From the IMG/VR virus record IMGVR_UViG_3300029610_000240: 64,000 nucleotides of DNA; one strand, written 5' to 3'. The stretch is from a virus (Duplodnaviria > Heunggongvirae > Uroviricota > Caudoviricetes). The notes under the pieces are model-generated. The model searched no databases and was not told the origin of the DNA. It worked only from the letters and a program-made list of their open reading frames with translations. A program made the position numbers and the translations under genes. Position 1 is the first letter of the stretch. Every line of letters begins with the position of its first letter. This document shows, piece after piece, positions 3 to 56,352 of the stretch.

Positions 3-3000
3 GCAACAAAAAAAGTTGCCGATACGATCACAACGAATACGGAAGGATATGCAGAATCCAAAGAACTGGATCCGGGAACATATTATGTTCATCAGATCGA
101 AGGAACTCCAAACTATAAATTTAGTGAGGATTCCGCAGATATCAAGATCGAGAATGGAGATACAGGAAAATACAATCACAATGTTGTATTAAAGAACTAT
201 GGTTCCACAAAACTTCGTATCATCAAGAAGATGAGTAAGAATAAACGAAGCAAGGCAGAAGTTGGAGCTTCCTTTACGGTTCTGGATGCATCTTATACCA
301 AAGATATTGAAAAACAGGATCTTGGAAATGCACAAAAAAGAATCGACTATATCAATTCCCTGGACAAAAAAGCAATCCTTGGAGAGATCGTAACGAACAA
401 AGAGGGAAAAGCTGCCCTGATGTTAGACAAATACAGTAAGAAGAATGGATTTGTCGTTATTCAGACCATGGGAGCTGACGGATATGATCTGATGGGAATC
501 TACTATTCCAAAGATCATAACCCAAAGACGGAAAAAGGACAGGATGTTTATGAGATCGAGGCATCTGATCCATACTCTGATTCCGGATGGGTAGAAATCT
601 ACAAGCAAAAGAGAGTCGCAGCGGATGAATATGTACCAGAAGTCGGAGCGAAGTTTGAGTTAAAAGAAGCGGATGGACATGTCGTAGAAACACTGACGAT
701 CGGAAAGGACGGAAAAGCAAAGACCAGCGAAAAAGTAGCACTGGGAGCTTATATCCTGCATCAGGTAGCCGGTGAAAATGGCTGCACAAAAGAACAGGAT
801 AAGCATGACTGGATCGAAGATCAGGATATCGTCTTAACAAAAGACAACAAAAATAAGACTGTCAGCTATTCTTACGATGATAATGAAAAACCGATCGAAG
901 TAGAACTTGTCAAACAATCCTCTGAAACAAAAAAACTGTTAAACGGAGCTGTCTACAAAGTCTATGACAGTGAAAAGAATCAGGTGGCAACATTAACAAC
1001 AGGAACGACCTCTGACGGGAAAGCATCCTGCAGACTGCCATATGGAACTTATACGATCAAAGAAACAACTGCACCGGATGGTTACAATCTTGATACAGAA
1101 CAAAGAACCTTTACCTTAAGTGAAAAGTCTGACAGTATCAAGATCAAATATGACAATGCCGGAAACGGAAAAGCAACCTTAAACGAGACAGATACACCGG
1201 TCATGGGTTCGATCTCCTTACAGAAGAAAGGAGAGTATCTGACAGGGCATGATGGAGATGTAGGATTCACATATGAAGATGATAACATCAATGGAGCTGT
1301 TTACGGCTTGTTTGCCAAAGAAGATATCACAAAAGATGATGGAACCGTTGTATGGAAAGCGGGAACAAAGATCGATGAAAAGACAACAAGCAAAGACGGA
1401 CCAGTGATTTTCACAAGAACAGGCAGCGATGGAAAACAGACGACTAATTTCTATCAGGGCCACTATTATGTCAAAGAACTTTCCGGTCCAAACGGATATA
1501 CCATTGATAAAGAAGAGCATGAAGTCAATATCACATGGGATACGAAACCAGATGCTATGAACAATCTGAATAAAAACAATACAACGCCGGATGTGGAAGA
1601 TCCAATGGGAAGTGAAGATGCGAAACCATCAACAGGGATCTATGTTCTGGAAGAAGGCGAAACTTTAAACAAAGAATTTGCCAATGCAGAGACGATCACG
1701 TTTACATGGGAAAAGGCAGCAGACGGAGTCCAGACAAAAGACGTTTCCCAGAACAAGGACGGAAGTGTTGTTTTATGGAAAGATGGAAACAACTATTATG
1801 TATCCACACAGAGAGCCGGACAGGTCATCTACATGAACGCTGTATCAAGTAAGATGTTCTTAAACTGTACAGCACTGACAACGATCAAATTTAAAAACAT
1901 TGATACTTCACAGACCGTGGATATGTCTGAGATGTTTGCCGGATGCGGAGCATTAAAAGAACTCGACTTATCAAGTTTCAACACATCTAATGTGGAAGAT
2001 GTATCCAAAATGTTTTACGGATGTTCTGAACTAAAGACAACCTATACACAGGATCAGAAGTTACAGATCACGGATGATTACGTGGCAGCAAAAGGATTAC
2101 AGATCACAGCTTCTCCAAAAACAGACTTTATGTTAGGAGATAAATACAAAGCCAGTGATTTTGACTTCTCTATGCTCTATGATGATAATGGAGAGGAAAC
2201 ACTGGAAGATGTGACGGACGCAGATGTCAGCTTCAATCCAACCTATGCAGATATGTCTGGAAAACAGAAAGTTCAGATCAGCTTTAAGTCATCCAGTAAA
2301 TATGCAAAATACCAGACGATTGAAACAACAGTCAAAGTCATCGATCCTGATGATACGAGTGATGTATCCTTAGATACGGCAAAACATGTAAACATCGACC
2401 TGAACCTGACTGATAAGCTTCAGAAATACAGCATTCAGTTTATCAAAACAGACAACAAAGGAAATATGTTACCGGGTGCGAAGTTTGCATTAAAAGCAGC
2501 CTGTGAGATCGTGGACCGCAATGGAAAGACGATCTTTAAGAAAGGTGATACGATCGCAACAACTGTTTCCGGAGATGATCAGTTTGGTTATCTGGAATTC
2601 TTCGGACTGCCAACTGGTATTTATGCAAAAGACGGTGTTGGCAAAGAAATGTATACGGTGGAAGAGATCGAAGCACCACTTGGATATAATAAGTCCGATG
2701 AAAAGCTGACATTTGGCGGAGAAGTATTAAACAATACGGCTGCGGACTTTATCCATGACGTGGCATCCCAGGGAAATACCAATACCGATGAAACAACTTA
2801 CAAACATGATTCCAAGACAATTGTCAACACTCCATCAGATTATGTGCAGGTGAAGAAGTACTGGATTGATGATAACAACTCCATGAACACAAGACCTGTA
2901 TCAGTGACCATCAAAGCCGAAAATAAGAATACACATGAAGTGAAGACTTATGTTCTGAACAAAGATAACAACTGGGCAATGCAGACAGATATCAAGCGTG

Positions 3001-4673
3001 GTGAGGAAAAGAACTATACGTTTAGTGAAGTTTGTAATGCAGCAGGTTACACAAGAGTTAGTGAAGCAAGTGGCGATTGGGATGAAAAAACATATACTTT
3101 ATCTTATACAAACAAATATGATAAGAATGATAAAGTACGGATTGTTGTCAAGAAAAACTGGAATGACAGTAATAATAGTGATGGTATTCGCCCAGATTCT
3201 GTTGTTGTGAGAGTTTATCAAAATGGTACAGAAATAAATCATAAAACATTAGATGCGAGCAATAACTGGACTGCAGAATTTAATAACCTCAATAAGACTG
3301 ATCCTGTTGGAGAAGATTACGAATATGAAGTGAAAGAAGATTCATCCTCTGTTGTTAACGGAAATGCAAAAACAGGTTATGAAGTGGCATATGAAGTAAA
3401 GAAATCAACGGATAAATCTACAGGTATCACAACGATCTCAACAGATATCACAAACACACATAGTCCAGATTCAACGACCAAATCCATTCAGAAGAAATGG
3501 AGTGATAACAACGATTCCGATGGCATCCGCCCAGATTCTGTCAAGTTCAATCTTGTCGGAAACGGAAAAGTCGCAGATACCGTAACCTTGTCTGAAAAGA
3601 ATGGATGGAAAGCGACATCCAAGCTCGTTCCAAAGAAAGAAAATGGAAAAGCGATCACTTATACATGGCAGGAAGTACAAGAAGGTGTGGTCACAGGAGA
3701 GAGTCAGATCGGATATAAGGCAACTTATACAACCGATAAAGATGATCCTGATACAACGATCGCAACCAATACCCATACACCGGGAAGAGGAAAGGTAACG
3801 ATCACGAAAGAGATCGATCCATCTAACTTAAACATGGATATCGGAAGTGCGAAATTTACGTTTACACTGAAAGGAACCGATGCTTATGGAAAGAAACATA
3901 CGTACAAGGAAGAGGTTGAATTCAGCAAGGATGAAGTAGCAAAACAGTTAAAAGCTCATCCGGGAGAAAGGATCAAACTTTCTGCAACCTTCGATGATCT
4001 GATCTACGGTACTTATACATGCAGCGAGAGTGGTGGAGAGAAATACTTTAAGCTCCTGACACTTACATCTGACAGCACCAATGCAACGGTTGACCAGAGC
4101 AAAGGAACTGTAACATTTAAGATCGGACCAGAAGGAACTATGGGAAATGCGAAACTGACAGCAGATGCAACTTTCGTTAACCAGATGATCCGTGGATCCG
4201 TAAAATTAGTTAAGAAAGATTCCTCCGGAAAACGATTAAAAGGTGTGGAATTTACGATCGAAGATTCCGATGGAAACAAGATCGCCAGTGACACAACAAA
4301 CGAGAATGGAGAGATTAAGTTTGATGGATTACTGCCAGATAAGTATAAGATCACAGAGACAAAGACACAGAGCGGTAAGACACTGTTAAAAGAACCAATC
4401 GATGTAACGATCCCAATGACAGTGACACAAAGCGAAGTGAACGATCAAAATATCGATGTGAGCAATGCGATCAAGCAGGGAAATAACTATTATTTCTATC
4501 ACTTAACTTATGAGGTGAGCAATGATTCCACACTGAACCTGCCATCAACTGGTGGATTCAGTAATATCAAGACTTACCTTCCACTGATCGGTGGATTCGT
4601 ACTGATCTTAGCAGCAGGATTCTATTATCTGAAAAAGAAAAAGGGTATGAAAATCCTGAAGAAGAAAAAATAA
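3..4673 (+). CDS. LPXTG-anchored surface adhesin, 5'-partial (Cna-B/SpaA-type repeats plus BspA-type leucine-rich repeats)
   Basis: The frame is open from the window edge; there is no stop upstream of the listed Met at 231. Repeated isopeptide-domain-like modules: GTYTIKETTAPDGY, GHYYVKELSGPNGY, YTVEEIEAPLGY, DKYKITETKTQSG. LRR block: LNCTALTTIKF..FAGCGALKELDLSSFNTSNV. C-terminal LPSTGG, hydrophobic helix and KKKK tail. Confidence 0.85.
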   Translation, partial: ATKKVADTITTNTEGYAESKELDPGTYYVHQIEGTPNYKFSEDSADIKIENGDTGKYNHNVVLKNYGSTKLRIIKKMSKNKRSKAEVGASFTVLDASYTKDIEKQDLGNAQKRIDYINSLDKKAILGEIVTNKEGKAALMLDKYSKKNGFVVIQTMGADGYDLMGIYYSKDHNPKTEKGQDVYEIEASDPYSDSGWVEIYKQKRVAADEYVPEVGAKFELKEADGHVVETLTIGKDGKAKTSEKVALGAYILHQVAGENGCTKEQDKHDWIEDQDIVLTKDNKNKTVSYSYDDNEKPIEVELVKQSSETKKLLNGAVYKVYDSEKNQVATLTTGTTSDGKASCRLPYGTYTIKETTAPDGYNLDTEQRTFTLSEKSDSIKIKYDNAGNGKATLNETDTPVMGSISLQKKGEYLTGHDGDVGFTYEDDNINGAVYGLFAKEDITKDDGTVVWKAGTKIDEKTTSKDGPVIFTRTGSDGKQTTNFYQGHYYVKELSGPNGYTIDKEEHEVNITWDTKPDAMNNLNKNNTTPDVEDPMGSEDAKPSTGIYVLEEGETLNKEFANAETITFTWEKAADGVQTKDVSQNKDGSVVLWKDGNNYYVSTQRAGQVIYMNAVSSKMFLNCTALTTIKFKNIDTSQTVDMSEMFAGCGALKELDLSSFNTSNVEDVSKMFYGCSELKTTYTQDQKLQITDDYVAAKGLQITASPKTDFMLGDKYKASDFDFSMLYDDNGEETLEDVTDADVSFNPTYADMSGKQKVQISFKSSSKYAKYQTIETTVKVIDPDDTSDVSLDTAKHVNIDLNLTDKLQKYSIQFIKTDNKGNMLPGAKFALKAACEIVDRNGKTIFKKGDTIATTVSGDDQFGYLEFFGLPTGIYAKDGVGKEMYTVEEIEAPLGYNKSDEKLTFGGEVLNNTAADFIHDVASQGNTNTDETTYKHDSKTIVNTPSDYVQVKKYWIDDNNSMNTRPVSVTIKAENKNTHEVKTYVLNKDNNWAMQTDIKRGEEKNYTFSEVCNAAGYTRVSEASGDWDEKTYTLSYTNKYDKNDKVRIVVKKNWNDSNNSDGIRPDSVVVRVYQNGTEINHKTLDASNNWTAEFNNLNKTDPVGEDYEYEVKEDSSSVVNGNAKTGYEVAYEVKKSTDKSTGITTISTDITNTHSPDSTTKSIQKKWSDNNDSDGIRPDSVKFNLVGNGKVADTVTLSEKNGWKATSKLVPKKENGKAITYTWQEVQEGVVTGESQIGYKATYTTDKDDPDTTIATNTHTPGRGKVTITKEIDPSNLNMDIGSAKFTFTLKGTDAYGKKHTYKEEVEFSKDEVAKQLKAHPGERIKLSATFDDLIYGTYTCSESGGEKYFKLLTLTSDSTNATVDQSKGTVTFKIGPEGTMGNAKLTADATFVNQMIRGSVKLVKKDSSGKRLKGVEFTIEDSDGNKIASDTTNENGEIKFDGLLPDKYKITETKTQSGKTLLKEPIDVTIPMTVTQSEVNDQNIDVSNAIKQGNNYYFYHLTYEVSNDSTLNLPSTGGFSNIKTYLPLIGGFVLILAAGFYYLKKKKGMKILKKKK

Positions 4674-12146: not shown

Positions 12147-12332
12147 GAAGGATGATTCCACAGTCTTTTGGCTGTGGGATTTTTGTATATCTTTAGAATT
12201 TTAGAATAATTTCATAAAATACGCATAAAATAAAAAATATGACACATATTGATAAAAAATATGATTTTTAGTATAATAAAGGAGTGTTATTTCGTGAATT
12301 ACGAATTTAAAATTTCAAGGGGGAAAGAGAAA

Positions 12333-13451: not shown

Positions 13452-13465
13452 AAGGGGATAAAACA

Positions 13466-13978: not shown

Positions 13979-15370
13979 TTGCTAATGTTGCGTACAATCG
14001 AAATGTGCACAAATGAATACAAAGATACAACACAAAAGGAAATCCGAAAGAAAAAAGGACAGTTTTTTACACCGGCAGAGGTTTCGATGAGAATGGCTGC
14101 TGTAGAAAATAAATATCCGAAGAATCAATTAATAAGGGTGTTAGATCCAGGAGCAGGAAACGGTATTTTATCTTTTGCCATGATTGATAAATTACTAAGA
14201 AGTGGGTATAAACGGCTTGATATTACACTGATTGAAACGGATACAGAGATTTTACCAGTCTTAGAATATACAATCACTAAAATTAGACAAATCTGTGAAT
14301 CATATCATGCAGAATGTACTATCCATTATATTGATCAAAATTTCGTGTTATGGGAATCCTCCTGTTTATATGATATCGTCATATGTAATCCTCCATATAT
14401 GAAAGTAAGAAAAGATTCTATCGAAGCAACGGCAATGAAGGCATATGTATATGGACAGCCTAACCTATATGGATTGTTTATGGCAAAAGCAGTAGAATTA
14501 TTGCGTGATAATGGACAGTACATTTTTATTACTCCCCGTTCGTGGACTTCTGGAAAATATTTTACGAAAGTACGGAGCTTCTTACAAAAAGAATTGAACA
14601 TAAAAGAAATCGACCTTTTTTCAAGTCGTGATGAAGTTTTTCAGGGAGAGAAAGTTCTTCAGGAGACAATGATCTTATATGGAGAAAAAGGACAGATTCA
14701 AAATGAGAAAATTAAAATTAATATTCTTAAAGACGGAACTTTAGATACAGGAAACAGTTTTTGGGCAGCAGCAGATCAGATTAAGTTTAAAGGATCAGAA
14801 CAATATCTGCTTTTACCAGAAAATGAAAATGATCTTAAAATTATAGATATAATGTCTGATATGACAGATTCTTTTGAGTCCAGTGGATATCACTTCAAAA
14901 CGGGACCAGTTGTAGAATTTCGAAATTTAGATCATATTCATAAAATATATCAAACTGGAGATATCCCAATGTATCGTTCGATACATATACAAAATGGAAC
15001 TCTGCAGTTTCCTGCCGATACTCAAAAAGCACAATATGTTAGTGCGGATGAAGAATCCTTGTTGATCCCAAAGCAAAATACTATTTTAGTTCGTCGGTTG
15101 AGTATGAAAGAAGATTTAAAACGTATTCAGGCTTGCAAATATTTTGCAGATGAAAATACAGACTTAAATACAGAATTTATGACTGTTGAAAATCATGTAA
15201 ATTATCTAACACGTAAAGATGGTATGGAAATGACCAGAAATGAAATAGATCAGCTGTTTGATATTTTAATGTCAGATATGTATGAACGTTATATCCGATT
15301 GATCAACGGAAGTACACAGATAAATGCGGGAGAACTTAATAAATTACCATTACAGAGGATTGAACGATGA
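13979..15370 (+). CDS. N6-adenine DNA methyltransferase (gamma class)
   Basis: GQFFTP, the AdoMet motif VLDPGAGNGIL and the catalytic NPPY (ICNPPYMKV). Confidence 0.85.
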   Translation: MLMLRTIEMCTNEYKDTTQKEIRKKKGQFFTPAEVSMRMAAVENKYPKNQLIRVLDPGAGNGILSFAMIDKLLRSGYKRLDITLIETDTEILPVLEYTITKIRQICESYHAECTIHYIDQNFVLWESSCLYDIVICNPPYMKVRKDSIEATAMKAYVYGQPNLYGLFMAKAVELLRDNGQYIFITPRSWTSGKYFTKVRSFLQKELNIKEIDLFSSRDEVFQGEKVLQETMILYGEKGQIQNEKIKINILKDGTLDTGNSFWAAADQIKFKGSEQYLLLPENENDLKIIDIMSDMTDSFESSGYHFKTGPVVEFRNLDHIHKIYQTGDIPMYRSIHIQNGTLQFPADTQKAQYVSADEESLLIPKQNTILVRRLSMKEDLKRIQACKYFADENTDLNTEFMTVENHVNYLTRKDGMEMTRNEIDQLFDILMSDMYERYIRLINGSTQINAGELNKLPLQRIER

Positions 15371-16359
15371 AAAGAAATGTAGAAAAATATGATTATCAGG
15401 TATTGAATGATGCAAAAAATATTCTTATGGAAATTGATATGCCAAAAGAACTTTATAATCCAAGGTGTGTTATGATATTTTGTGCATGTGCCCAGATGAT
15501 AGATGGAAAATCATGGAGGCATATATCAGAAGAATATATGAGTGTCCATGATATTATCAAATATGTAAATGATGTATTTCCTAATAAAGCAGGTTTGGAT
15601 AAAAAAGGATATCAGGAAAATAGCAGGGAAACATTTCGGGATGAAACTCTAAAACGTTGGGTAAGTGCAGCAATCATTGAATCTAAAGCAGGACTGGCAG
15701 CCAATGATAGAAACAATGGATATCGTTTTACTTCCGCTTTTGCCGCATTGGTAAGAACTTATGGAAGTGATCAGTGGGAAGATTCCCTGTCAGCATTTAT
15801 GGAAACTTATGAAAGCTATAGTAAAAAATTAAAACAAGTAAAATCCCTGCCGAAAGGATATGATGTGACTTGCGGAAATATTACAGTTAAATTAGGATTA
15901 TCCGCACATAATAAATTACAAAAACAGATTTTAGAAGAGTTTGTTCCCAATTTTGCATCTGGAGCAGAATTATTATATATAGGCGATACATCCGATCGTA
16001 CATTACAAAGAGATGACAAACGATTATCAGAATTAGGAATTAAAATCCTAGAAGATACTTCAAAACTTCCAGATATTATTTTATATGATTCTGATAAAAA
16101 TCGAATCATATATGTGGAAGCGTACTCCAGTACCGGAGAATTTAATAAGGATCGAGTCGATTATATTAATACATATTGCTCATATAAAAATGATATTGAA
16201 GTGGCATTTGTAACAGCATTTGCAACAACAAAAAAGATGCTTCAGGTTTATCCAAAGATTGCATGGGACACAGAGATCTGGATTGCCGAAGAAGCAACAC
16301 ATCTGACTCATAAAAACGGAGATAGATTTATGGGAAGGAATCCCGAAGAGTTTTTATAG
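15367..16359 (+). CDS. type II restriction endonuclease, BsuBI/PstI-like
   Basis: Overlaps the methyltransferase stop (ATGA). 330 aa with PD-(D/E)xK-like PDIILYDSDKNRIIYVEAYSS. Family assignment is from memory of PstI-type size and organisation. Confidence 0.55.
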   Translation: MKRNVEKYDYQVLNDAKNILMEIDMPKELYNPRCVMIFCACAQMIDGKSWRHISEEYMSVHDIIKYVNDVFPNKAGLDKKGYQENSRETFRDETLKRWVSAAIIESKAGLAANDRNNGYRFTSAFAALVRTYGSDQWEDSLSAFMETYESYSKKLKQVKSLPKGYDVTCGNITVKLGLSAHNKLQKQILEEFVPNFASGAELLYIGDTSDRTLQRDDKRLSELGIKILEDTSKLPDIILYDSDKNRIIYVEAYSSTGEFNKDRVDYINTYCSYKNDIEVAFVTAFATTKKMLQVYPKIAWDTEIWIAEEATHLTHKNGDRFMGRNPEEFL

Positions 16360-23446: not shown

Positions 23447-23600
23447 CATCCTCTCCCATCTATAGAGGTGGGAGCTTCCCTAACCTCGGCAGGTTTGGTT
23501 CTCGTTCGATAGCACCAATGTGCTAAGCTTAAGCGAGCTAACCCCGTGTGTCCCACGGTTGTATTATGTGAAATTGTGGTTATGCAGTTACTATCCGCAT
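23447..23600 (-). ncRNA. TnpB omega-RNA region
   Basis: Sequence overlapping and extending past the 3' end of tnpB, GC-richer than its surroundings, ending at the element-end hairpin. Confidence 0.55.
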
Positions 23601-24698
23601 TCCCTCATTTCTGATATTGATCGCTGCATTTACATCTCTGTCGTGATGGATTCCACACTGCGGACAATCCCACTGCCTGAGTGCAAGATCCTTTGTTTTC
23701 GCATTCTTGTAACCACAGGCAGAACACATCTGACTGCTTGCAAAAAATCTGTCCACTTTCACAAGTTTTTTCCCTTGTTCCTCAAGTTTATACTTTAGAA
23801 AGGCTGTGAACATTCCCCATCCATTATCCGAAACGGATTTTCCCAATTTCAACGACCGAGACATTGCTTTCATATCCAGATCCTCTATACATACACAATC
23901 ATAGGCATTGGTTATCTGTCTTGACTGCTTATGCAGAAAATCTTTTCGCTGATTGGAAACTTTTTCGTGAAGTTTGGCTACCTTGATTCTCTGTTTCCTG
24001 CGATTGTTCGAACCTTTCTGCATCTTGGAAAGTCTGCGTTGTTCTCTTGCTAATCTTTTCTCTGCGTTCCGGTAATATCCTGGATATGCCGGTTCATTGC
24101 CATTACTGTCACGATATAATCCGTGCATGGAAAAGTCCAGACCTAAAAAACTGTGCATCTCCTTTTCTGGTATCTGATCTTCATACTCAAAAAGGATACT
24201 TGCATAGTATCTTCCGCCTGGTGTCTGGCTGATCGTCACTGATTTCAACCTGTATCCCTTTGGAACAGATCTGTGCTGCTTTAATCGGACTTGTCCGATC
24301 TTTGGCAGTTTCAGATACCCATCCGATATGGTGATGTTGCCATTGATACATATGGTTGAATAGCTGTTTTTATGATTCTTTTTTGATTTGAACCTTGGAA
24401 ATCCTGTTTTCGGCCGTTTGAAAAAGTTCTGAAATGCTGTATCAAGGTGTCGGAGTGATTGCTGTAAGGATATACTATCGACTTCCCGCAAAAATGCGTA
24501 TTCTTCCGTTTTCTTCATTTCAGCCATTTCTTTCGCACAGACAGTATATGTTATATTTGTCTTGTTCTTCTTATACTGCCTGATCCTTCGATTAAGCCAA
24601 TGGTTGTACACCATTCTGACACAGCCGAAAGTCCTGGCAAACAGAATCATCTGCTCATTATTGGGATATATTCTGAATTTATATGCTCTGTTTGCCAT
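23580..24698 (-). CDS. tnpB: TnpB RNA-guided nuclease (IS605 OrfB type)
   Basis: N-terminal AYKFRIYPN..Q, RuvC D (GLDFSMHG), E (CIEDLDMK), Zn finger CSACGY..CPQCG, RuvC-III HDRDVNAAINI. Confidence 0.9.
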   Translation of the reverse strand: MANRAYKFRIYPNNEQMILFARTFGCVRMVYNHWLNRRIRQYKKNKTNITYTVCAKEMAEMKKTEEYAFLREVDSISLQQSLRHLDTAFQNFFKRPKTGFPRFKSKKNHKNSYSTICINGNITISDGYLKLPKIGQVRLKQHRSVPKGYRLKSVTISQTPGGRYYASILFEYEDQIPEKEMHSFLGLDFSMHGLYRDSNGNEPAYPGYYRNAEKRLAREQRRLSKMQKGSNNRRKQRIKVAKLHEKVSNQRKDFLHKQSRQITNAYDCVCIEDLDMKAMSRSLKLGKSVSDNGWGMFTAFLKYKLEEQGKKLVKVDRFFASSQMCSACGYKNAKTKDLALRQWDCPQCGIHHDRDVNAAINIRNEGMRIVTA

Positions 24699-32730: not shown

Positions 32731-32802
32731 TGATGATGACTTAATTGATGATTTAAGACAAAGTTTTAAAAATATGTAACAGATATATGTAAAAACAAAT
32801 GG
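32731..32802 (+). CRISPR. guide module A: one spacer-like segment plus one repeat
   Basis: Repeat GTTTTAAAAATATGTAACAGATATATGTAAAAACAAATGG (32763..32802), preceded by TGATGATGACTTAATTGATGATTTAAGACAAA. Confidence 0.6.
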
Positions 32803-32804
32803 CA

Positions 32805-32872
32805 GTTACATAATGCGTAAGAATAAGAATGTATCGAATAAGTCTATATAAGTAGAATCTACCAGGTGGTAG
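32805..32872 (+). ncRNA. tracrRNA-like scaffold A
   Basis: Anti-repeat GTTACATAATGCGTAAGAAT pairs with ATATGTAAC of the repeat. Nexus AAGAATGTATCGAAT. Hairpins TCTA/TAGA and CTACC-AGG-TGGTAG (32859..32872). Confidence 0.65.
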
Positions 32873-32904
32873 AAAATATTAAAACTAACAGGAGATAATA
32901 TTTC

Positions 32905-36133: not shown

Positions 36134-36277
36134 GTTTTGTAATCGTGTAAAAGCACTTAAATATGCTGTAGAAGATGTTTTGTTACTGTGCAACGGAAAT
36201 ATGTCTAAATGATTTAATTTATTACTACTTTTTATTCCTTTGTTTTGTAACCGTGTAACGGAGACATGTCTAAATGG
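36134..36277 (+). CRISPR. guide module B mini-array (3 repeats)
   Basis: Repeats at 36134..36165 (decayed), 36177..36212 and 36242..36277 (GTTTTGTAACCGTGTAACGGAGACATGTCTAAATGG). Spacers are 11 nt and 29 nt (TTTAATTTATTACTACTTTTTATTCCTTT). Confidence 0.7.
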
Positions 36278-36356
36278 TCAAATTATTTTGCACGGTGCGT
36301 AAAAATAAGAAATTATCGAATAGGCTCGTTAAAACGAGAGCTGCCGTGTGGCAGTA
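36278..36356 (+). ncRNA. tracrRNA-like scaffold B
   Basis: TCAAATTATT linker. Anti-repeat TTGCACGGTGCGTAAAAAT pairs with ACCGTGTAA. Nexus AAGAAATTATCGAAT. Hairpins CTCGT-TAAA-ACGAG and CTGCC-GTGT-GGCAG. Confidence 0.75.
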
Positions 36357-36499
36357 AATCTAAGCTACATCAATTTCAAGATTATAATTTGGGAGGAGAA
36401 AATGTTTGGGAAAATTAATGTTTTTTATTTATTGTTGGCTATATATTTGTATTATTTGTTATATTCTTGCAGCCAAGAACAAGAAAGAAGGTGTAGTGT

Positions 36500-46126: not shown

Positions 46127-49100
46127 GTGCAGAATGGATTTTTAGGAATAACTGTTAGTAGTGAACAGGTTGGTTGGGCAGTTACAAATCCCAAATATGA
46201 GTTAGAACGTGCATCTCGAAAAGATTTATGGGGTGTAAGGCTTTTTGATAAAGCAGAAACAGCGGAAGATCGAAGAATGTTCCGTACAAACAGACGATTA
46301 AATCAGAGAAAAAAGAACAGAATACATTATCTTAGAGATATTTTCCATGAGGAAGTAAATCAAAAAGATCCTAACTTTTTTCAGCAATTAGATGAAAGCA
46401 ATTTCTGTGAAGATGATCGTACTGTAGAGTTTAATTTTGATACTAATCTTTATAAGAATCAGTTTCCAACAGTGTATCATTTAAGAAAATATCTAATGGA
46501 AACAAAAGATAAACCAGATATTCGTCTGGTATACTTAGCTTTTTCAAAATTTATGAAAAATCGAGGACATTTCTTATACAAAGGAAATCTTGGAGAGGTT
46601 ATGGACTTTGAAAATTCCATGAAAGGCTTTTGTGAAAGTTTAGAGAAATTTAATATTGACTTCCCTACATTATCAGATGAACAGGTAAAAGAAGTCCGAG
46701 ATATCTTATGTGATCATAAAATTGCTAAAACTGTGAAAAAGAAAAACATCATTACTATTACAAAAGTAAAAAGTAAGACAGCAAAAGCATGGATTGGACT
46801 GTTTTGTGGTTGCAGCGTTCCTGTTAAAGTATTATTTCAGGATATCGATGAAGAAATTGTAACGGATCCAGAAAAAATCTCATTTGAAGATGCTTCTTAT
46901 GATGATTGTATTGCAAATATTGAAAAGGGTGTCGGTATTTATTATGAAGCTATTGTTTCTGCAAAGATGCTTTTTGACTGGTCTATCCTGAATGAAATTT
47001 TAGGTGACCATCAGTTATTAAGTGATGCAATGATCGCAGAATACAATAAGCATCATGATGATTTAAAGCGTTTACAGAAGATCATTAAAGGAACTGGCAG
47101 TAGAGAATTATATCAGGATATCTTTATTAATGATGTTTCTGGAAATTATGTATGCTACGTTGGTCATGCAAAAACAATGAGTAGTGCAGATCAGAAACAG
47201 TTTTATACATTTTTAAAAAATCGATTAAAAAATGTGAATGGTATTTCATCAGAAGATGCAGAATGGATTGATACAGAGATTAAAAACGGTACTTTACTAC
47301 CAAAACAGACAAAACGTGATAACAGTGTTATTCCGCATCAATTACAGTTAAGGGAATTTGAATTAATTCTTGATAACATGCAGGAAATGTATCCATTCTT
47401 AAAAGAAAACAGAGAAAAATTATTAAAAATCTTCAATTTCGTTATTCCTTATTATGTAGGTCCGCTAAAGGGCGTTGTAAGAAAAGGAGAGAGTACAAAC
47501 TGGATGGTGCCTAAAAAAGATGGTGTGATTCATCCATGGAATTTCGATGAAATGGTAGACAAAGAAGCGTCTGCGGAATGTTTTATTTCCCGAATGACAG
47601 GAAATTGTAGTTATTTATTTAATGAAAAAGTTCTTCCAAAGAATTCTCTTCTTTATGAGACATTTGAGGTATTAAATGAGCTAAATCCATTAAAGATCAA
47701 TGGAGAACCTATCAGCGTGGAATTAAAACAGAGAATTTATGAACAGCTTTTCTTGACAGGGAAAAAAGTTACAAAAAAATCTCTGACAAAATATCTTATC
47801 AAGAATGGCTATGACAAAGATATTGAATTATCAGGTATTGATAATGAATTTCACAGCAATCTAAAATCTCATATTGATTTTGAGGATTACGATAATCTAT
47901 CTGATGAAGAAGTTGAACAGATTATTCTTAGAATTACAGTATTTGAAGATAAGCAGCTGTTAAAAGATTATTTAAATCGCGAGTTTGTAAAGCTCTCTGA
48001 GGATGAGAGAAAACAGATTTGCTCATTATCTTATAAAGGATGGGGAAACTTATCAGAAATGCTATTAAACGGTATTACTGTAACAGATTCCAATGGTGTA
48101 GAAGTTTCTGTAATGGATATGCTGTGGAATACAAACTTAAATCTGATGCAGATCTTAAGTAAGAAATATGGATATAAAGCAGAAATCGAACATTACAATA
48201 AAGAACATGAAAAAACCATTTATAATCGTGAAGATTTGATGGATTATTTAAATATTCCACCGGCTCAGCGTAGGAAGGTAAATCAGCTGATTACGATAGT
48301 AAAATCTCTCAAAAAGACATATGGAGTTCCAAATAAGATTTTCTTCAAAATAAGCAGAGAACATCAGGATGATCCAAAGAGAACTTCATCCAGAAAAGAA
48401 CAGCTAAAATATTTATACAAATCCTTAAAATCAGAAGATGAAAAACATCTTATGAAAGAGCTTGATGAATTGAACGATCATGAATTATCCAATGATAAAG
48501 TTTATCTTTATTTTCTACAGAAAGGACGCTGCATTTATTCTGGCAAGAAATTAAATCTTTCAAGATTAAGAAAATCTAATTATCAGAATGATATTGACTA
48601 CATTTATCCATTATCTGCAGTAAATGATCGTTCTATGAATAATAAGGTATTAACGGGAATCCAGGAGAATCGAGCAGACAAGTATACCTATTTTCCAGTT
48701 GATTCAGAAATTCAGAAAAAAATGAAGGGATTTTGGATGGAACTGGTTCTGCAGGGATTTATGACAAAGGAGAAATACTTCCGATTATCCAGAGAAAATG
48801 ATTTTTCAAAGAGCGAACTTGTTAGCTTTATTGAACGTGAAATTTCAGATAATCAGCAAAGTGGAAGAATGATTGCTTCTGTATTACAGTATTATTTCCC
48901 TGAATCAAAGATTGTATTTGTAAAAGAAAAGCTGATTTCTTCCTTTAAGAGGGATTTCCATTTAATTAGTAGTTATGGTCACAATCATTTACAAGCTGCA
49001 AAAGATGCTTATATTACGATTGTAGTTGGAAATGTATATCATACAAAATTTACAATGGACCCAGCAATCTATTTTAAGAATCATAAGAGAAAAGATTATG

Positions 49101-50065
49101 ATCTGAACCGATTATTCTTAGAAAATATCAGCAGAGATGGACAGATTGCATGGGAAAGTGGTCCATATGGGTCAATTCAGACGGTTCGAAAAGAATATGC
49201 TCAAAACCATATTGCTGTTACAAAAAGAGTCGTGGAAGTAAAAGGCGGCTTATTTAAGCAGATGCCATTAAAAAAAGGACATGGCGAATATCCATTAAAA
49301 ACCAATGATCCTAGATTTGGCAATATCGCACAGTATGGAGGGTATACGAATGTCACAGGTTCCTATTTTGTATTAGTAGAATCAATGGAGAAAGGGAAAA
49401 AACGTATTTCTTTAGAATATGTTCCAGTATATCTTCATGAGCGTTTAGAGGATGATCCTGGACATAAACTGTTAAAAGAATATCTGGTTGATCACAGAAA
49501 ACTTAATCATCCAAAGATTTTACTTGCAAAAGTAAGAAAAAACTCATTACTTAAGATTGACGGTTTTTATTATCGTTTAAATGGTCGAAGTGGAAATGCT
49601 CTTATCCTTACAAATGCAGTGGAATTGATCATGGATGACTGGCAGACAAAAACAGCAAACAAGATTTCTGGATACATGAAACGCAGAGCTATTGATAAGA
49701 AAGCAAGGGTTTATCAAAATGAATTCCATATTCAGGAATTAGAACAGCTTTATGATTTTTATTTAGATAAATTAGAGAATGGTGTTTATAAAAATCGTAA
49801 GAATAATCAGGCTGAATTAATTCACAACGAAAAAGAACAGTTTATGGAACTCAAGACAGAAGATCAGTGTGTATTATTGACTGAGATTAAAAAGCTTTTT
49901 GTATGTTCTCCAATGCAGGCAGACCTTACATTGATTGGTGGCAGCAAACACACAGGAATGATTGCTATGTCAAGCAATGTTACAAAAGCAGATTTTGCAG
50001 TCATTGCGGAAGATCCTTTAGGACTTAGAAACAAAGTAATTTATTCTCATAAAGGTGAGAAGTAA
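46127..50065 (+). CDS. cas9: Cas9 homologue (type II-A-like size) with substituted RuvC and HNH catalytic residues
   Basis: GTG start 7 nt after AAGGAGGA. Conserved: bridge helix RRMFRTNRRLNQRKKNRIHYLRDIF, FPTVYHLRKYL, NRGHFLYKG, IPHQLQL, IPYYVGPL, PWNFDEMVDKEASAECFISRMT, YKGWGNLS. Catalytic columns: LGITVSSEQVGWAV (D10 is T), IFFKISREHQ (E762 is K), DIDYIYPLS (H840 is Y), QAAKDAYITIVVG (H983 is A, D986 kept). Confidence 0.9.
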   Translation: MQNGFLGITVSSEQVGWAVTNPKYELERASRKDLWGVRLFDKAETAEDRRMFRTNRRLNQRKKNRIHYLRDIFHEEVNQKDPNFFQQLDESNFCEDDRTVEFNFDTNLYKNQFPTVYHLRKYLMETKDKPDIRLVYLAFSKFMKNRGHFLYKGNLGEVMDFENSMKGFCESLEKFNIDFPTLSDEQVKEVRDILCDHKIAKTVKKKNIITITKVKSKTAKAWIGLFCGCSVPVKVLFQDIDEEIVTDPEKISFEDASYDDCIANIEKGVGIYYEAIVSAKMLFDWSILNEILGDHQLLSDAMIAEYNKHHDDLKRLQKIIKGTGSRELYQDIFINDVSGNYVCYVGHAKTMSSADQKQFYTFLKNRLKNVNGISSEDAEWIDTEIKNGTLLPKQTKRDNSVIPHQLQLREFELILDNMQEMYPFLKENREKLLKIFNFVIPYYVGPLKGVVRKGESTNWMVPKKDGVIHPWNFDEMVDKEASAECFISRMTGNCSYLFNEKVLPKNSLLYETFEVLNELNPLKINGEPISVELKQRIYEQLFLTGKKVTKKSLTKYLIKNGYDKDIELSGIDNEFHSNLKSHIDFEDYDNLSDEEVEQIILRITVFEDKQLLKDYLNREFVKLSEDERKQICSLSYKGWGNLSEMLLNGITVTDSNGVEVSVMDMLWNTNLNLMQILSKKYGYKAEIEHYNKEHEKTIYNREDLMDYLNIPPAQRRKVNQLITIVKSLKKTYGVPNKIFFKISREHQDDPKRTSSRKEQLKYLYKSLKSEDEKHLMKELDELNDHELSNDKVYLYFLQKGRCIYSGKKLNLSRLRKSNYQNDIDYIYPLSAVNDRSMNNKVLTGIQENRADKYTYFPVDSEIQKKMKGFWMELVLQGFMTKEKYFRLSRENDFSKSELVSFIEREISDNQQSGRMIASVLQYYFPESKIVFVKEKLISSFKRDFHLISSYGHNHLQAAKDAYITIVVGNVYHTKFTMDPAIYFKNHKRKDYDLNRLFLENISRDGQIAWESGPYGSIQTVRKEYAQNHIAVTKRVVEVKGGLFKQMPLKKGHGEYPLKTNDPRFGNIAQYGGYTNVTGSYFVLVESMEKGKKRISLEYVPVYLHERLEDDPGHKLLKEYLVDHRKLNHPKILLAKVRKNSLLKIDGFYYRLNGRSGNALILTNAVELIMDDWQTKTANKISGYMKRRAIDKKARVYQNEFHIQELEQLYDFYLDKLENGVYKNRKNNQAELIHNEKEQFMELKTEDQCVLLTEIKKLFVCSPMQADLTLIGGSKHTGMIAMSSNVTKADFAVIAEDPLGLRNKVIYSHKGEK

Positions 50066-50106: not shown

Positions 50107-50259
50107 GCTTTGGAACTGCGTAGAACATGATATGTCTTATGGCTAAAAGAATTACAGGTGCATATTTTGAACTGTGTAAAACATGGCATATGGGAGAATT
50201 GGCAACGACTGGAACAGAACACAGTTTTGAAACTGTATAAAACATGACATGTCTTATGG
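50107..50259 (+). CRISPR. guide module C mini-array (3 repeats), starting 42 nt after the cas9 stop
   Basis: Repeats at 50107..50142 (6 mismatches), 50164..50193 (30 nt, decayed) and 50224..50259 (GTTTTGAAACTGTATAAAACATGACATGTCTTATGG). Spacers: 21 nt CTAAAAGAATTACAGGTGCAT and 30 nt GAGAATTGGCAACGACTGGAACAGAACACA. Confidence 0.75.
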
Positions 50260-50336
50260 TTCAAATTATTTATACAGTACGTGAAAATAAGAAATTATCG
50301 AATAAACTCGTTTAGACGAGAACTGCTAGAGGCAGT
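50260..50336 (+). ncRNA. tracrRNA-like scaffold C
   Basis: Anti-repeat TTTATACAGTACGTGAAAAT gives a 10-bp perfect pairing with ACTGTATAAA. Nexus AAGAAATTATCGAAT. Hairpins CTCGT-TTAG-ACGAG and CTGC-TAGAG-GCAG (50323..50335). Confidence 0.8.
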
Positions 50337-50352
50337 AATTGCAGAAAATGTC

Positions 50353-50385
50353 ATGAACCCCAAGCGACTTCGTCGGCCGGGGGTT
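50353..50385 (+). terminator. GC-rich hairpin after module C
   Basis: AACCCC..CGAC-TTC-GTCG..GGGGTT nested stem followed by a short T run. Confidence 0.45.
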
Positions 50386-50448
50386 TACGCACCAATTTGA
50401 TAATATTTCTAATCATATATTACCTTATATGATTAATGGAGAAAATAG

Positions 50449-50612: not shown

Positions 50613-50957
50613 ATGAAGATTACAAGAACGATTAAATTTAAAGAATATATCCTCGGATATTTAGAAAAATTAGAGGTTCATGAAGTTCGACGCATTGAAA
50701 AAGCCGGACGATTAAGCCGTGACATTATCAAAGAGGAATCTGAAAAATGCGGACACAAATTAATGATTCTTGATACGATTGAAAAAGAAAGACGTTATGA
50801 ATGTTCATTAGAAGATTTCTTATCCGTTGCAAGAGAGATTCCACTAAAAAATCAGGAGACTGTTAATACAGAAGAAAAAAATGTTCAGGAAGATAATTCA
50901 GAGGATTCTAAGTCTAAGTTAGGCGATTCTGACTGTGCCCCTTGGATTGAAGATTAA
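50613..50957 (+). CDS. hypothetical protein
   Basis: 114-aa ORF lying between guide modules C and D. Confidence 0.5.
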   Translation: MKITRTIKFKEYILGYLEKLEVHEVRRIEKAGRLSRDIIKEESEKCGHKLMILDTIEKERRYECSLEDFLSVAREIPLKNQETVNTEEKNVQEDNSEDSKSKLGDSDCAPWIED

Positions 50958-50961
50958 TGTT

Positions 50962-51117
50962 ATTTTGAGAAATGATTGCAAATGTGATCGTAGCGTACCT
51001 TACTTCACAGCTTAGTTTTGGAACTATGTAAAATCAAATGATTGCAAATGGGCAGAGAGAAAATTTGAAAAATTGTCTGTGTTTTGGAACTATGTAAAAT
51101 CAAATGATTGCAAATGG
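50962..51117 (+). CRISPR. guide module D mini-array (3 repeats)
   Basis: Repeats at 50962..50985 (internally deleted), 51015..51051 and 51081..51117 (GTTTTGGAACTATGTAAAATCAAATGATTGCAAATGG). Spacers: GATCGTAGCGTACCTTACTTCACAGCTTA and GCAGAGAGAAAATTTGAAAAATTGTCTGT. Confidence 0.8.
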
Positions 51118-51193
51118 TCAAAGTAATTGCATGGCGTGTAAAAATAAGAATTTATCGAAATAATTTGCTCCGGCGAAATCTGCAAGATGCAGA
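51118..51193 (+). ncRNA. tracrRNA-like scaffold D
   Basis: TCAAAGTAA linker. Anti-repeat TTGCATGGCGTGTAAAAAT pairs with CTATGTAA through two G:U. Nexus AAGAATTTATCGAAAT. Hairpins TTTGC-TCCG-GCGAA and TCTGC-AAGA-TGCAGA. Confidence 0.75.
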
Positions 51194-51197
51194 AATC

Positions 51198-51265: not shown

Positions 51266-51290
51266 AATAAAAAGAATTAAAATTACGAAA

Positions 51291-51445
51291 ATAAAATTGA
51301 ATGATTCCAATGGATAGTCGAAAAAGAATTGGATAGTCGACGGGTTTTAGAATAGTGTAAAATTGAATGATTCTAAGGGTTAGATACTCCACTAGATAGC
51401 AAAGTACTTGTTTTAGAATAGTGTAAAATTAAATGATTCTAAGGG
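51291..51445 (+). CRISPR. guide module E mini-array (3 repeats)
   Basis: Repeats at 51292..51313 (3' half only), 51344..51379 (GTTTTAGAATAGTGTAAAATTGAATGATTCTAAGGG) and 51410..51445. Spacers: ATAGTCGAAAAAGAATTGGATAGTCGACGG and TTAGATACTCCACTAGATAGCAAAGTACTT. Confidence 0.8.
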
Positions 51446-51528
51446 GTCAAATAGATTCTATACAATGCGTGAAAATAAGAAACTTATCGAACAAACCTGT
51501 GTAGGAAACAGGAACTGCCGAGGGCAGT
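51446..51528 (+). ncRNA. tracrRNA-like scaffold E
   Basis: GTCAAATAGAT linker, anti-repeat TCTATACAATGCGTGAAAAT, nexus AAGAAACTTATCGAAC. Hairpins CCTGT-GTAGGAA-ACAGG and CTGCC-GAG-GGCAG (51515..51527). Confidence 0.75.
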
Positions 51529-51823
51529 AAAAATAAAAAGCATATTTTTATTATGTTTTATTTTATGATGAAGAGGTGGATGATGGTTCTATCTCTGTTT
51601 TTGAGAAAATGGATGCATTGCAAAATGCAACAATCTTAGAAGTACAAATACATATTGATGACTTAAAAGATAAATTGGAAGAAGTAAAATTTACTCTTAA
51701 AATATCAGGTTTGTATTTGAAGAAGATAATTTTATGGATTCTTATTATAAATCTTATACGTTACCGATTGTATATCACAAAAACTATTTATTAAGTATTA
51801 ACAATGATAAGGAATAACAATAA

Positions 51824-53791: not shown

Positions 53792-53965
53792 GATTTGAAT
53801 CCATGTAAAAATGTAAAGCAAATGATTCCAAATGGCAATCTTCTCGAATTGTCGTGTAGGCAAAGTTTTGAAACCATGTAAAAAAATGATTCCAAATGGG
53901 TATGCATTGGTGTTTGAAGCGTTTGTGTGTTTTGGAACCATGTAAAAGCAAATGATTCCAAATGG
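53792..53965 (+). CRISPR. guide module F mini-array (3 repeats)
   Basis: Repeats at 53792..53835 (internal duplication), 53865..53899 (2-nt deletion) and 53929..53965 (GTTTTGGAACCATGTAAAAGCAAATGATTCCAAATGG). Spacers: CAATCTTCTCGAATTGTCGTGTAGGCAAA and GTATGCATTGGTGTTTGAAGCGTTTGTGT. Confidence 0.8.
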
Positions 53966-54043
53966 TTAAAAGCAGATTACATGGTGTGTCAAAATAAGAA
54001 CTTATCGAATAGATCTATATAAATGGAATCTGCCAGGTGGCAG
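53966..54043 (+). ncRNA. tracrRNA-like scaffold F
   Basis: Anti-repeat TTACATGGTGTGTCAAAAT gives a 9-bp perfect pairing with ACCATGTAA. Nexus AAGAACTTATCGAAT. Hairpin 2 CTGCC-AGGT-GGCAG (54030..54043). Hairpin 1 is weak and resembles that of scaffold A. Confidence 0.75.
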
Positions 54044-54053
54044 AAAAAAACTG

Positions 54054-55543: not shown

Positions 55544-55570
55544 GTTTCAGAAGTTTATAAAAACAGATAA
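55544..55570 (+). CRISPR. guide module G: single divergent repeat
   Basis: GTTTCAGAAGTTTATAAAAACAGATAA, preceded by the candidate guide GAGACACTTTCATGTATAGTGGAGTTTA. Confidence 0.5.
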
Positions 55571-55580
55571 CTATTAATGA

Positions 55581-55658
55581 TTATCTGTTTCATGGATTGT
55601 GTAAAAATAAGCAAATTAGCGAATATGCTCGTTGAAACGAGAGCTGTTAGATAACAGC
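55581..55658 (+). ncRNA. tracrRNA-like scaffold G
   Basis: TTATCTGTTT pairs perfectly with AAACAGATAA across a 10-nt loop. GATTGTGTAAAAAT, nexus variant AAGCAAATTAGCGAAT. Hairpins CTCGT-TGAA-ACGAG and GCTGTTA-GA-TAACAGC. Confidence 0.6.
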
Positions 55659-55710
55659 TAAAAATGTAACTATATAAATTAATTTGTAAATTATAGGGAG
55701 GACTATTTTA

Positions 55711-55875: not shown

Positions 55876-56091
55876 ATGATGGATATTTACACAAGATTAT
55901 TGATGATGGATATTATGATATCGGCAGTAGCTATTATGGTAAATATCTTAGAAAATTGTCCGATTAACGGTAAAATACACAATATTTCAAGAATTTTAAT
56001 CATATCTAGTATTGCTGCAGACATTATCTTACTTTTAGGAATTGTCAATACGTTCATCTCATACAGTATCCTGTATTCTTATTTTAAATAA
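55876..56091 (+). CDS. small membrane protein
   Basis: 71 aa with two hydrophobic helices. Its stop overlaps the first, partial repeat of module H. Confidence 0.45.
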   Translation: MMDIYTRLLMMDIMISAVAIMVNILENCPINGKIHNISRILIISSIAADIILLLGIVNTFISYSILYSYFK

Positions 56092-56094
56092 GAT

Positions 56095-56249
56095 ACAGAA
56101 GAATCATTGTCGATGTTAAACATATTATGTGAAACATTATTGTCAGGCTTTAGAAGTCTATAAAACAGAATCATTGTCAATGAGATCAAATTCTTTATGA
56201 CAACGCAATACAGCTTTAGAAGTCTATAAAACAGAATCATTGTCAATGG
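56095..56249 (+). CRISPR. guide module H mini-array (3 repeats)
   Basis: Repeats at 56095..56115 (3' half only), 56147..56183 and 56213..56249 (GCTTTAGAAGTCTATAAAACAGAATCATTGTCAATGG). Spacers: TTAAACATATTATGTGAAACATTATTGTCAG and GATCAAATTCTTTATGACAACGCAATACA. Confidence 0.8.
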
Positions 56250-56325
56250 TCAAATAAGCAGACTGCGTAAAAATAAGAATTTTATCGATATTGCTCGTGT
56301 AGTCGAGAACTGCCAAGTGGCAGCA
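56250..56325 (+). ncRNA. tracrRNA-like scaffold H
   Basis: TCAAATAAG linker, anti-repeat CAGACTGCGTAAAAAT, nexus AAGAATTTTATCGAT. Hairpins CTCG-TGTAGT-CGAG and CTGCC-AAGT-GGCAG (56310..56323). The next gene's RBS follows 18 nt later. Confidence 0.75.
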
Positions 56326-56352
56326 ACATTTATAATAAAAAGGAGGAATTAT

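Follow-up and report, generated by a model that had tools for sequence, protein, structure and literature searches.

Can a CRISPR repeat and the anti-repeat adjoining it form, within one transcript, a natural counterpart of the engineered single-guide RNA (sgRNA)? This question was raised by the IMG/VR record IMGVR_UViG_3300029610_000240, a stretch of 64,000 nt (referred to here as the window) in which eight short modules, A to H, lie upstream and downstream of a cas9 gene and end in a tail that is read as a tracrRNA (trans-activating CRISPR RNA) tail. The modules are genuine guide-RNA cassettes; for the newest spacer of each array, their architecture speaks for a natural single guide, and the system as a whole is probably adaptive and binding-only.

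Repeat and anti-repeat in module C

The cas9 gene and the parts of module C were located as follows.

46127..50065, + strand: Cas9 homologue of 1312 amino acid residues with a type II-A-like architecture (Pfam and structure alignments)
50107..50223, + strand: cas9-proximal, decayed part of the module C mini-array, with two short spacers and degenerate repeats at 50107-50142 (30/36) and at about 50165-50198
50224..50259, + strand: terminal repeat of module C, 36 nt, GTTTTGAAACTGTATAAAACATGACATGTCTTATGG; lower stem from positions 1-5, upper stem from positions 9-18
50260..50268, + strand: linker, 9 nt, TTCAAATTA, carrying the nearly invariant (G)TCAAAT motif
50269..50288, + strand: anti-repeat, TTTATACAGT-ACGTG-AAAAT, the full stretch being TTTATACAGTACGTGAAAAT
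50281..50338, + strand: tracrRNA tail, a match to RAGATH-30 (RF03055) at 75.7 bits against a gathering score of 59.5
Parts of this tail, + strand: the 3' strand of the lower stem, nexus (50289-50306), hairpin 1 (50307-50320) and hairpin 2 (50322-50336)
50358..50386, + strand: G+C-rich hairpin followed by TTT, 3' of module C, read from the sequence

The first degenerate repeat of module C starts 42 nt past the cas9 stop codon, and the terminal repeat begins 158 nt 3' of cas9. A sequence-only reading of the window had held that this terminal repeat adjoins its own anti-repeat, that the first 10 nt of the anti-repeat perfectly complement repeat positions 9-18, and that GAAAAT closes the GTTTTG base over a small bulge in sgRNA geometry. 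Each of these points was confirmed. The repeat (50224-50259) and the anti-repeat (50269-50288) are separated by the 9-nt linker alone, nucleotides 50232-50241 are the exact complement of 50269-50278, and in the lower stem GAAAAU pairs with GUUUU through one G-U and four U-A pairs. In the bulge between the two stems, 3 nt of the repeat face 5 nt of the anti-repeat.

In the whole 64 kb, ACTGTATAAA has a single copy on the + strand (50232-50241), and its reverse complement likewise occurs once (50269-50278); the chance expectation for 10-mer complement matches in the window is 0.19. A chance origin of the repeat:anti-repeat complementarity was ruled out by this uniqueness, together with a shuffle test. 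When nucleotides 50204-50338 were folded, the 10-bp cis stem and the two 3' hairpins were present in both the minimum-free-energy and the centroid structures. The hairpin at 50358..50386 may be the end of a cas9-module C transcript; it was not flagged by the terminator scan.

The eight modules, their covariation and the RAGATH-30 tail

All eight modules lie on the + strand, according to both the RAGATH-30 matches and a covariance model. Besides module C, they were delimited as follows.

32763..32875, + strand: module A, a lone repeat-like segment, an anti-repeat (32805-32824) and a RAGATH-30 tail
36177..36357, + strand: module B, repeats starting at 36177 and 36242, spacer 36213-36241, anti-repeat 36287-36306 and tail 36299-36357
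50958..51195, + strand: module D, a truncated repeat, spacers 50985-51014 (D1) and 51051-51080, and repeats starting at 51015 and 51081
51126..51195, + strand: 3' part of module D, with anti-repeat 51126-51145 and tail 51138-51195
51278..51530, + strand: module E, a degenerate repeat, spacers 51314-51343 and 51380-51409, repeats starting at 51344 and 51410, and tail 51469-51530
53799..54046, + strand: module F, a degenerate repeat, two spacers, terminal repeat 53929-53964, anti-repeat 53976-53995 and tail 53988-54046
55544..55660, + strand: module G, a lone repeat-like segment, a displaced 10-bp hairpin and RAGATH-30 tail 55601-55660
56080..56326, + strand: module H, a degenerate repeat, spacers 56116-56146 and 56183-56212, repeats starting at 56147 and 56213, and tail 56267-56326

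Six modules (B, C, D, E, F and H) are mini-arrays with 36-nt repeats starting with GTTT, and in each of them the 5'-most repeat is degenerate or truncated. Their spacers measure 28-31 nt. The repeat sequence varies by module, and the anti-repeat varies along with it. The supposition that the layout of module C recurs elsewhere held for B, D, E, F and H as arrays and for A with its single repeat; for G it held in part, as the repeat-like segment and the tail are present and the upper stem is displaced. Module G has no canonical upper stem and forms instead a perfect 10-bp local hairpin, AAACAGATAA/TTATCTGTTT, between the 3' part of the repeat and the linker, bordered by a large internal loop. 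Module A has neither an array nor the TCAAAT motif, and its variable region is missing from two related elements (L011 and L003). A small hairpin, TGATT/GGTCA, was seen inside the loop in the folds of D, E and F and could not be aligned across module classes.

Base pairing was counted in an alignment of 23 distinct modules from the window and related contigs, A and G being left out; the linker measures 9-13 nt in all of them. Paired cells made up 91.1%, compared with 82.2 ± 0.7% after shuffling (0 of 500 shuffles reached the observed value), and pairing dropped to 34-50% once the partner was slid by 1-3 columns. Changes on both sides were found in 5 of the 10 upper-stem pairs, and the upper repeat:anti-repeat stem was independently predicted by RNAalifold. 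The orthologous module C provides an example: ACTGTATAAA/TTTATACAGT in the window corresponds to ACTATGTAAA/TTTACATAGT in two related contigs (L001 and L002), which amounts to two compensatory double changes between elements whose Cas9 proteins are 98-100% identical. Judged from these alignments, the repeat:anti-repeat pairing is under selection, since the stem co-varies. An RNA from the minus strand was ruled out, because A-C mismatches would there replace the invariant lower-stem G-U pair and further G-U pairs.

All eight window modules were recovered at full length (71-116 bits) by a covariance model of the whole unit from whose training A and G had been left out, and it also matched modules in elements whose Cas9 is only 73-74% identical. 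Overall, the layout recurs in related elements with Cas9 identities of 71-100%. The model found no module in 120 GTDB genome stretches that share a 19-nt pattern of the tail, these being chance matches. No relatives of the window Cas9 were found in GTDB species genomes, and no records nearly identical to the window were found among annotated phages.

In the Rfam scan of the window, the family RAGATH-30 (RF03055) matched eight times on the + strand, with 64.7-78.6 bits against the gathering score and with starts at 32817, 36299, 50281, 51138, 51469, 53988, 55601 and 56267. The 5' end of the RAGATH-30 consensus, GUAAAAAUAAG, is the 3' strand of the lower stem; it is followed by an 18-nt AAG..AUCGAA segment with a 2-bp stem and then by two hairpins. 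The 2-bp nexus stem consists of G-C and A-U in 23 of the 23 modules (C-G in module G), and the two 3' hairpins co-vary in the same alignment. By inspection, the tail corresponds position for position to the nexus and hairpins of the sgRNA of Streptococcus pyogenes Cas9 (SpCas9). The Rfam tracrRNA model RF02348 gave 22.8 bits (E = 0.21), below its gathering score of 70.

The features expected of a tracrRNA were found as an anti-repeat complementary to the 5' part of the repeat, a bulge that parts the lower and upper stems, and the nexus and 3' hairpins that follow. The orphan family RAGATH-30 is read as the tracrRNA tail of this Cas9 clade, because its 5' end is the lower-stem strand of the anti-repeat and the remainder is nexus and hairpins. 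Another RAGATH motif, RAGATH-18, was shown earlier to serve IS607 TnpB as a guide RNA scaffold (PMC11061315). Neither a paper mentioning RAGATH-30 nor a function for the family was found in the literature searched, and its description is absent from the text of Weinberg 2017.

Partner Cas9, spacer turnover and host element

On the window Cas9, Pfam matched Cas9_REC (1.5e-138), Cas9_PI (2e-57), Cas9-BH and HNH_4. Alignment to solved structures and relatives, in SpCas9 numbering, revealed D10T (GITVSS for GLDIGT), H840Y (DIDYIYP for DVDHIVP) and H983A (LQAAKDAY for YHHAHDAY); E762, N854, N863 and D986 are retained. Every clade member examined, down to 71% identity, has D10T and has lost H983; among those with an HNH domain, a single one lacks H840Y. 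Bacterial Cas9 proteins of about 42% identity keep D, H and H at these positions. In sixteen protein clusters (P0003-P0018) with 96-99% identity to the window Cas9, residues 742-896 are deleted in frame, and with them the RuvC-II glutamate and the entire HNH domain. One such HNH-deleted element (L024, cas9 at 10001-13471) has kept six modules with unique spacers. The full-length reading frame of Cas9 is kept from 100% down to 71% identity. Since D10, H840 and H983 are lost, and the HNH domain is wholly lost in close relatives, binding without cutting is likely, and the window Cas9 is most likely a natural dead Cas9, a binder and not a cutter.

The arrays were compared in eight variants (the window, L001, L002, L024 and L153-L156), four of them being metagenomic contigs that encode one and the same Cas9 protein. 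The backbones are 98-99.5% identical to the window, yet the spacers differ. In module E, spacer E1 is always kept at the 5' end and is followed by five different 3' additions across lineages; the spacer orders of module D are [3,4], [3,4,5], [4,5] and [3,9]. Modules C, F and H follow the same pattern of 3' addition; the exceptions are units lost at the 5' end or from the interior. Growth of the arrays takes place at the tracrRNA-proximal 3' end, the reverse of the canonical II-A polarity.

The nearly invariant linker, G|GTCAAAT, reads ATTTGAC|C on the opposite strand. A canonical II-A leader ends in ATTTGAG|GTTT (PMC5382924), and exactly this leader end is present in a bacterial relative (L026). 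An integration signal would lie on the tracrRNA side of the array, so that each new spacer would land beside the anti-repeat and the newest spacer would be the fused one.

For spacer D1 (50985-51014), matches at 29-30 of the 30 positions were found in four IMG/VR contigs (9-45 kb); the protospacer lies in a phage replication module (DNA polymerase, exonuclease and a Gp2.5-like protein), and its 3' flank is AGAAGTT. Spacer F6, from sister elements, matched another viral contig at 30 of 30 positions with the flank AAAAATA. A match of E2 was exact over 20 nt but reached 23/30 overall and is probably due to chance. No spacer targets were found in annotated phage and plasmid records, and exact IMG/VR searches for F1, F2 and H2 returned only the arrays themselves or nothing.

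E4 (module E of L155) is nearly identical to the module B spacer of L001, and F6 (module F of L153 and L156) to a spacer of L006; these recurring near-same spacers suggest repeated acquisition from favoured targets. F6 also resembles the window at 35418-35447 on the − strand (23/30), and it stands twice in tandem in module F of L156, as a duplicated spacer-repeat unit.

Guide seed matches of at least 10 nt were found neither near cas9 nor elsewhere in the window, except for one T-rich 13-mer of the module B spacer. This spacer (36213-36241) has its 13-nt match at the end proximal to the protospacer adjacent motif (PAM) at 12099-12111 (− strand), and self-targeting there was rejected as chance on account of base composition. 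A second match of the same spacer, 22/24 at 26019-26042 (− strand) in the open reading frame (ORF) 25993-26667, covers its 5' part only, misses the PAM-proximal end and was also judged to be chance.

The Cas9 cluster includes WP_044924278.1 of Anaerostipes hadrus and was found in 1867 blocks of the assembly collection. The elements are present on contigs of about 200 kb that IMG/VR files as viral. No phage structural genes were found among the ORFs tested, and the locus ends in a Tn916-type Xis and integrase beside chromosomal metal-homeostasis genes (L024, 20290-21934; L153-L156). From its gene content, the whole is called a large integrative mobile element of A. hadrus, phage-like or like an integrative and conjugative element.

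A HEARO (IscB omega) RNA at 19765-19994 (112 bits) precedes an IscB-type ORF at 20045-21319 (RRXRR and HNH domains, 424 residues); as judged from these matches, the pair is a second RNA-guided system in the window. The other neighbours comprise the following.

231..4673: LPXTG-anchored SpaA/Cna_B surface protein of 1480 residues
7513..11232: transglutaminase-like/Big_2 surface protein of 1239 residues, with a 117-nt tandem repeat at 10027-10295
13979..16359: restriction-modification pair, an Eco57I/N6-type methylase and a BsuBI/PstI-type endonuclease
23580..24698, − strand: TnpB-type ORF of 372 residues, with OrfB_IS605 and a Cas12f1-like TNB domain

Guide formation in cis or in trans, and known systems

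The modules occupy short gaps between same-strand genes, 0-45 nt after the upstream stop codons. Module D starts at the stop codon of ORF 50613-50957, and downstream of modules A, B, G and H a ribosome-binding site and a start codon come within 30-50 nt. In seven of the eight modules the tail ends in AAA, without a U-tract after the last hairpin. A crude promoter scan of the window showed no enrichment (39 sites, compared with 32 expected). No conserved promoter was seen in the repeat or linker in the alignment or in the scans, which were crude, and a promoter inside these parts was rejected for want of conserved support. The array and the tracrRNA are probably co-transcribed, because the same-strand gaps are tight, no promoter is evident and the U-tract is missing. 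Complementarity ends at about repeat position 18, and the resulting bulged duplex of about 15 bp is a short one for RNase III to act on.

The minimum-free-energy folds of A-F contain the cis stem. For C, E and H, partition-function folding of the whole module favours the terminal repeat as partner of the anti-repeat, and cognate duplexes have a mean energy of −9.1 kcal/mol, compared with −5.6 kcal/mol for non-cognate ones. Only the last spacer of each array would be hard-wired; the earlier ones need long-range pairing in cis or pairing in trans.

The sequence-only reading had one transcript fold as a single guide, with neither a trans-acting tracrRNA nor an RNase III step. The sgRNA geometry stands, co-transcription is favoured and the duplex is indeed short for RNase III; the cis form is a prediction that extends to the last spacer only, and the upstream spacers, with their need for long-range or trans pairing, fall outside it. 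Folding module by module, as had been proposed, likewise bore this out in part, since the cis stem appears in A-F, the ensembles of B, D and F share the anti-repeat between repeats, and G departs.

The favoured account, held to be probable though not strongly so, is that the modules are miniature type II CRISPR loci with a 3'-joined tracrRNA, and that they supply natural single guides to the adjacent binding-only Cas9. Each module runs from the degenerate repeat through spacer-repeat units, the TCAAAT linker and the anti-repeat to the nexus and two hairpins, and it would be transcribed within the transcripts of the surrounding same-strand genes. The anti-repeat would fold onto the repeat just made. 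A lower stem of 5 bp, a bulge and an upper stem of 9-10 bp would arise, with the 3' half of the repeat and the linker as the closing loop of about 27-30 nt. The resulting single-guide RNA would need no separate tracrRNA and probably no RNase III, and its ends would be trimmed by host RNases. Upstream spacers would use the same anti-repeat by longer-range cis pairing, or the tracrRNA of another copy of the transcript. New spacers enter at the tracrRNA-proximal repeat, as the array comparison shows, probably via the inverted, leader-like ATTTGA motif and a Cas1-Cas2-Csn2 machinery encoded elsewhere, so that the newest spacer would always be the one fused to the scaffold. The guide-loaded Cas9, to judge from its residues, would bind matching DNA of competing phages or elements and block it without cutting.

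Several results weigh against this account. The z-score of the module C fold, −1.57 against shuffled sequence, is unremarkable, a modest value because the RNA is A+U-rich. In the whole-module ensembles of B, D and F, the anti-repeat is split about equally between the terminal and an upstream repeat, and these three modules cross-pair about as strongly as they pair with their own partners; the cognate duplexes of E, G and H are weak (−3.7 to −6.4 kcal/mol). Pairing in cis is thus a thermodynamic prediction, and the choice between cis and trans rests on thermodynamics and gene arrangement; the covariation fits cognate pairing in trans equally well. Most spacers cannot be hard-wired, because there is one anti-repeat per two to six repeats, and the linker may be conserved for a role in spacer integration in the DNA, or as a promoter, and not as an RNA loop. 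As for the protein, nuclease loss is read from residues alone, and one clade member (P0020) keeps H840. No Pfam match to cas1, cas2 or csn2 was found in the neighbouring ORFs, and tblastn with the L026 proteins found nothing in the window or in L001-L025; the integrase must therefore be encoded elsewhere in the element or by the host. Targets were identified for only two spacers.

A first alternative is a conventional dual-RNA arrangement, in which the tracrRNA would be made from its own promoter in the terminal repeat and linker, in the way of the promoters in type II-C repeats, and would pair in trans with each repeat of the precursor RNA, adjacency meaning no more than a tracrRNA gene on the leader side of the array. 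It would account for the need of one anti-repeat to serve several repeats, for the feasible non-cognate pairing among B, D and F, where upstream repeats compete equally, and for linker conservation through DNA-level functions; furthermore, TGGTCAAAT resembles an extended −10 element (TGnTATAAT). That putative −10, however, has C in place of the essential A(−11), its upstream TG is not conserved (AGG, TAG and GGGCC occur) and module C has an extra T, and neither a conserved −35-like element nor a promoter in the scan was found there. The complementarity is also too short for the usual RNase III step, the covariation is module-specific although several tracrRNAs share one cell, and the solitary modules A and G keep a repeat-like arm on the tail, the local 10-bp hairpin of G being sensible only in cis. 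The dual-RNA arrangement is accordingly judged unlikely.

The existence of phage-encoded sgRNA mimics, and the fixed upstream sequence of the array-less modules A and G, would suit anti-CRISPR decoys or regulators like vsgRNA, rAcrIIA1 or tracr-L, which would sequester a host Cas9 or repress a cas9 promoter. But the element has its own Cas9, and the tail family was found only beside this Cas9 clade; the spacers have full length (30 nt) and a polar turnover, and two of them match foreign, unrelated viral contigs (30/30). No guide seed of at least 10 nt was found near cas9 or elsewhere in the window, the T-rich 13-mer excepted, and no acr genes were recognised nearby, which leaves this explanation improbable. 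Decay would explain the lost catalytic residues, the HNH deletion in many copies and the degenerate upstream repeats, the modules then being leftover arrays beside a pseudogenised Cas9 with a complementarity inherited from an ancestral tracrRNA. Against it stand the full-length frame kept down to 71% identity, the compensatory changes that maintain the stems, the ordered 3' additions by which arrays differ between 99%-identical backbones, and the presence of the protein in the 1867 blocks mentioned above; mere remnants are very improbable.

With the single-guide account preferred, a wider statement is put forward tentatively, as somewhat short of even: a very common A. hadrus element would run an adaptive, nuclease-free Cas9 system in which eight operon-embedded cassettes express the newest spacer as an RNase III-independent single guide, silencing would occur by binding alone, and RAGATH-30 would be the scaffold. 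The sgRNA fusion was originally an engineering step. If the account is true, the fusion exists within a working, spacer-acquiring array, the known natural counterparts carrying one fixed short guide. It would also mean a natural Cas9-based CRISPR interference, a new mode for type II, binding-only action being otherwise known from type IV, V-M and TnpB-derived repressors, and the orphan family RAGATH-30 would gain a function as scaffold. The element is abundant in human gut metagenomes and may influence how phages and elements fare in a major producer of butyrate. As a possible tool, it offers a compact guide format that is multiplexed by nature and operates inside mRNAs.

With type II-A, the system shares the Cas9 domain architecture, the 36-nt GTTT repeats and the 30-nt spacers; adjacent cas1, cas2 and csn2 and intact RuvC and HNH catalytic residues are missing. 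L026, a canonical II-A locus in a metagenome-assembled genome of Clostridium sp., is alike in the 36-nt GTTT repeat, the 30-nt spacers, the Cas9 domain order and the ATTTGAG motif. It differs in that it has cas9-cas1-cas2-csn2, its leader lies upstream of the array, its last repeat is degenerate, RAGATH-30 does not match, and D, H and H are intact, whereas the window arrays have both the leader-like motif and the growing end at the 3' side, with the tracrRNA in the leader position. In type II-C arrays (Neisseria meningitidis), promoters are embedded in the repeats, processing is RNase III-independent and the polarity is reversed relative to crRNA (CRISPR RNA) transcription. The window system may be likened to them in polarity and in its putative RNase III independence; it has no conserved repeat promoter, and its Cas9 is a long, II-A-type protein. 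[quoted passage not shown]

The long tracrRNA form of S. pyogenes, tracr-L, had been named as the known precedent. It is a natural single guide, and it resembles the form predicted for the modules in that a repeat-like arm and an anti-repeat stand on one transcript and form an sgRNA-like hairpin with a large loop; it is no longer the sole precedent, since phage vsgRNAs and rAcrIIA1 were described in preprints of 2026. tracr-L leads Cas9 to bind but not to cut (Workman et al., bioRxiv 10.1101/2020.05.21.102756). Its one fixed, short guide (about 11-13 nt) is directed to the cas9 promoter and lies outside any array, whereas in the window the terminal repeat of a growing array, with spacers of 30 nt, serves as the arm; there are eight copies, and no match to the cas9 promoter was found. 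A short guide of 11-14 nt matching the cas9 promoter, as in tracr-L and vsgRNAs, is not present among the spacers of 28-31 nt. Non-cutting results from the short guide in tracr-L and would come from the protein in the window system.

The phage vsgRNAs (Feussner et al., 2026, 10.64898/2026.06.01.729453) and rAcrIIA1 (10.64898/2026.06.03.729762) are natural, sgRNA-shaped and encoded by mobile elements. By definition, vsgRNAs are shorter than 120 nt and stand beside acr genes on viral contigs that lack cas9, and their guides measure 14 nt; they act as Cas9 decoys or repressors, and the survey left out cas9-bearing viral contigs (10.64898/2026.06.01.729453). The window modules fall outside that definition, as cas9 is on the same element; their guides are of full length and variable, and the modules are joined to arrays.

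Binding without cutting is also the mode of types IV-A and V-M. TnpB-derived TldR repressors (PMC10705468) and exapted dCas12f (PMC12259090) are RNA-guided effectors that only bind. All of these are, like the window Cas9, nuclease-deficient, and some are on mobile elements, but they are derived from TnpB or Cas12 or belong to class 1. In the literature searched, whose coverage was incomplete, no naturally dead Cas9 with arrays that turn over was found; nor, in the similarly incomplete searchable literature, was a tracrRNA fused to the growing array end, multiplied and dispersed in operons together with a dead Cas9. Natural sgRNAs were already known; what is new here is the tracrRNA at the growing end of the array, its dispersed copies and the presumably dead Cas9 as their partner.

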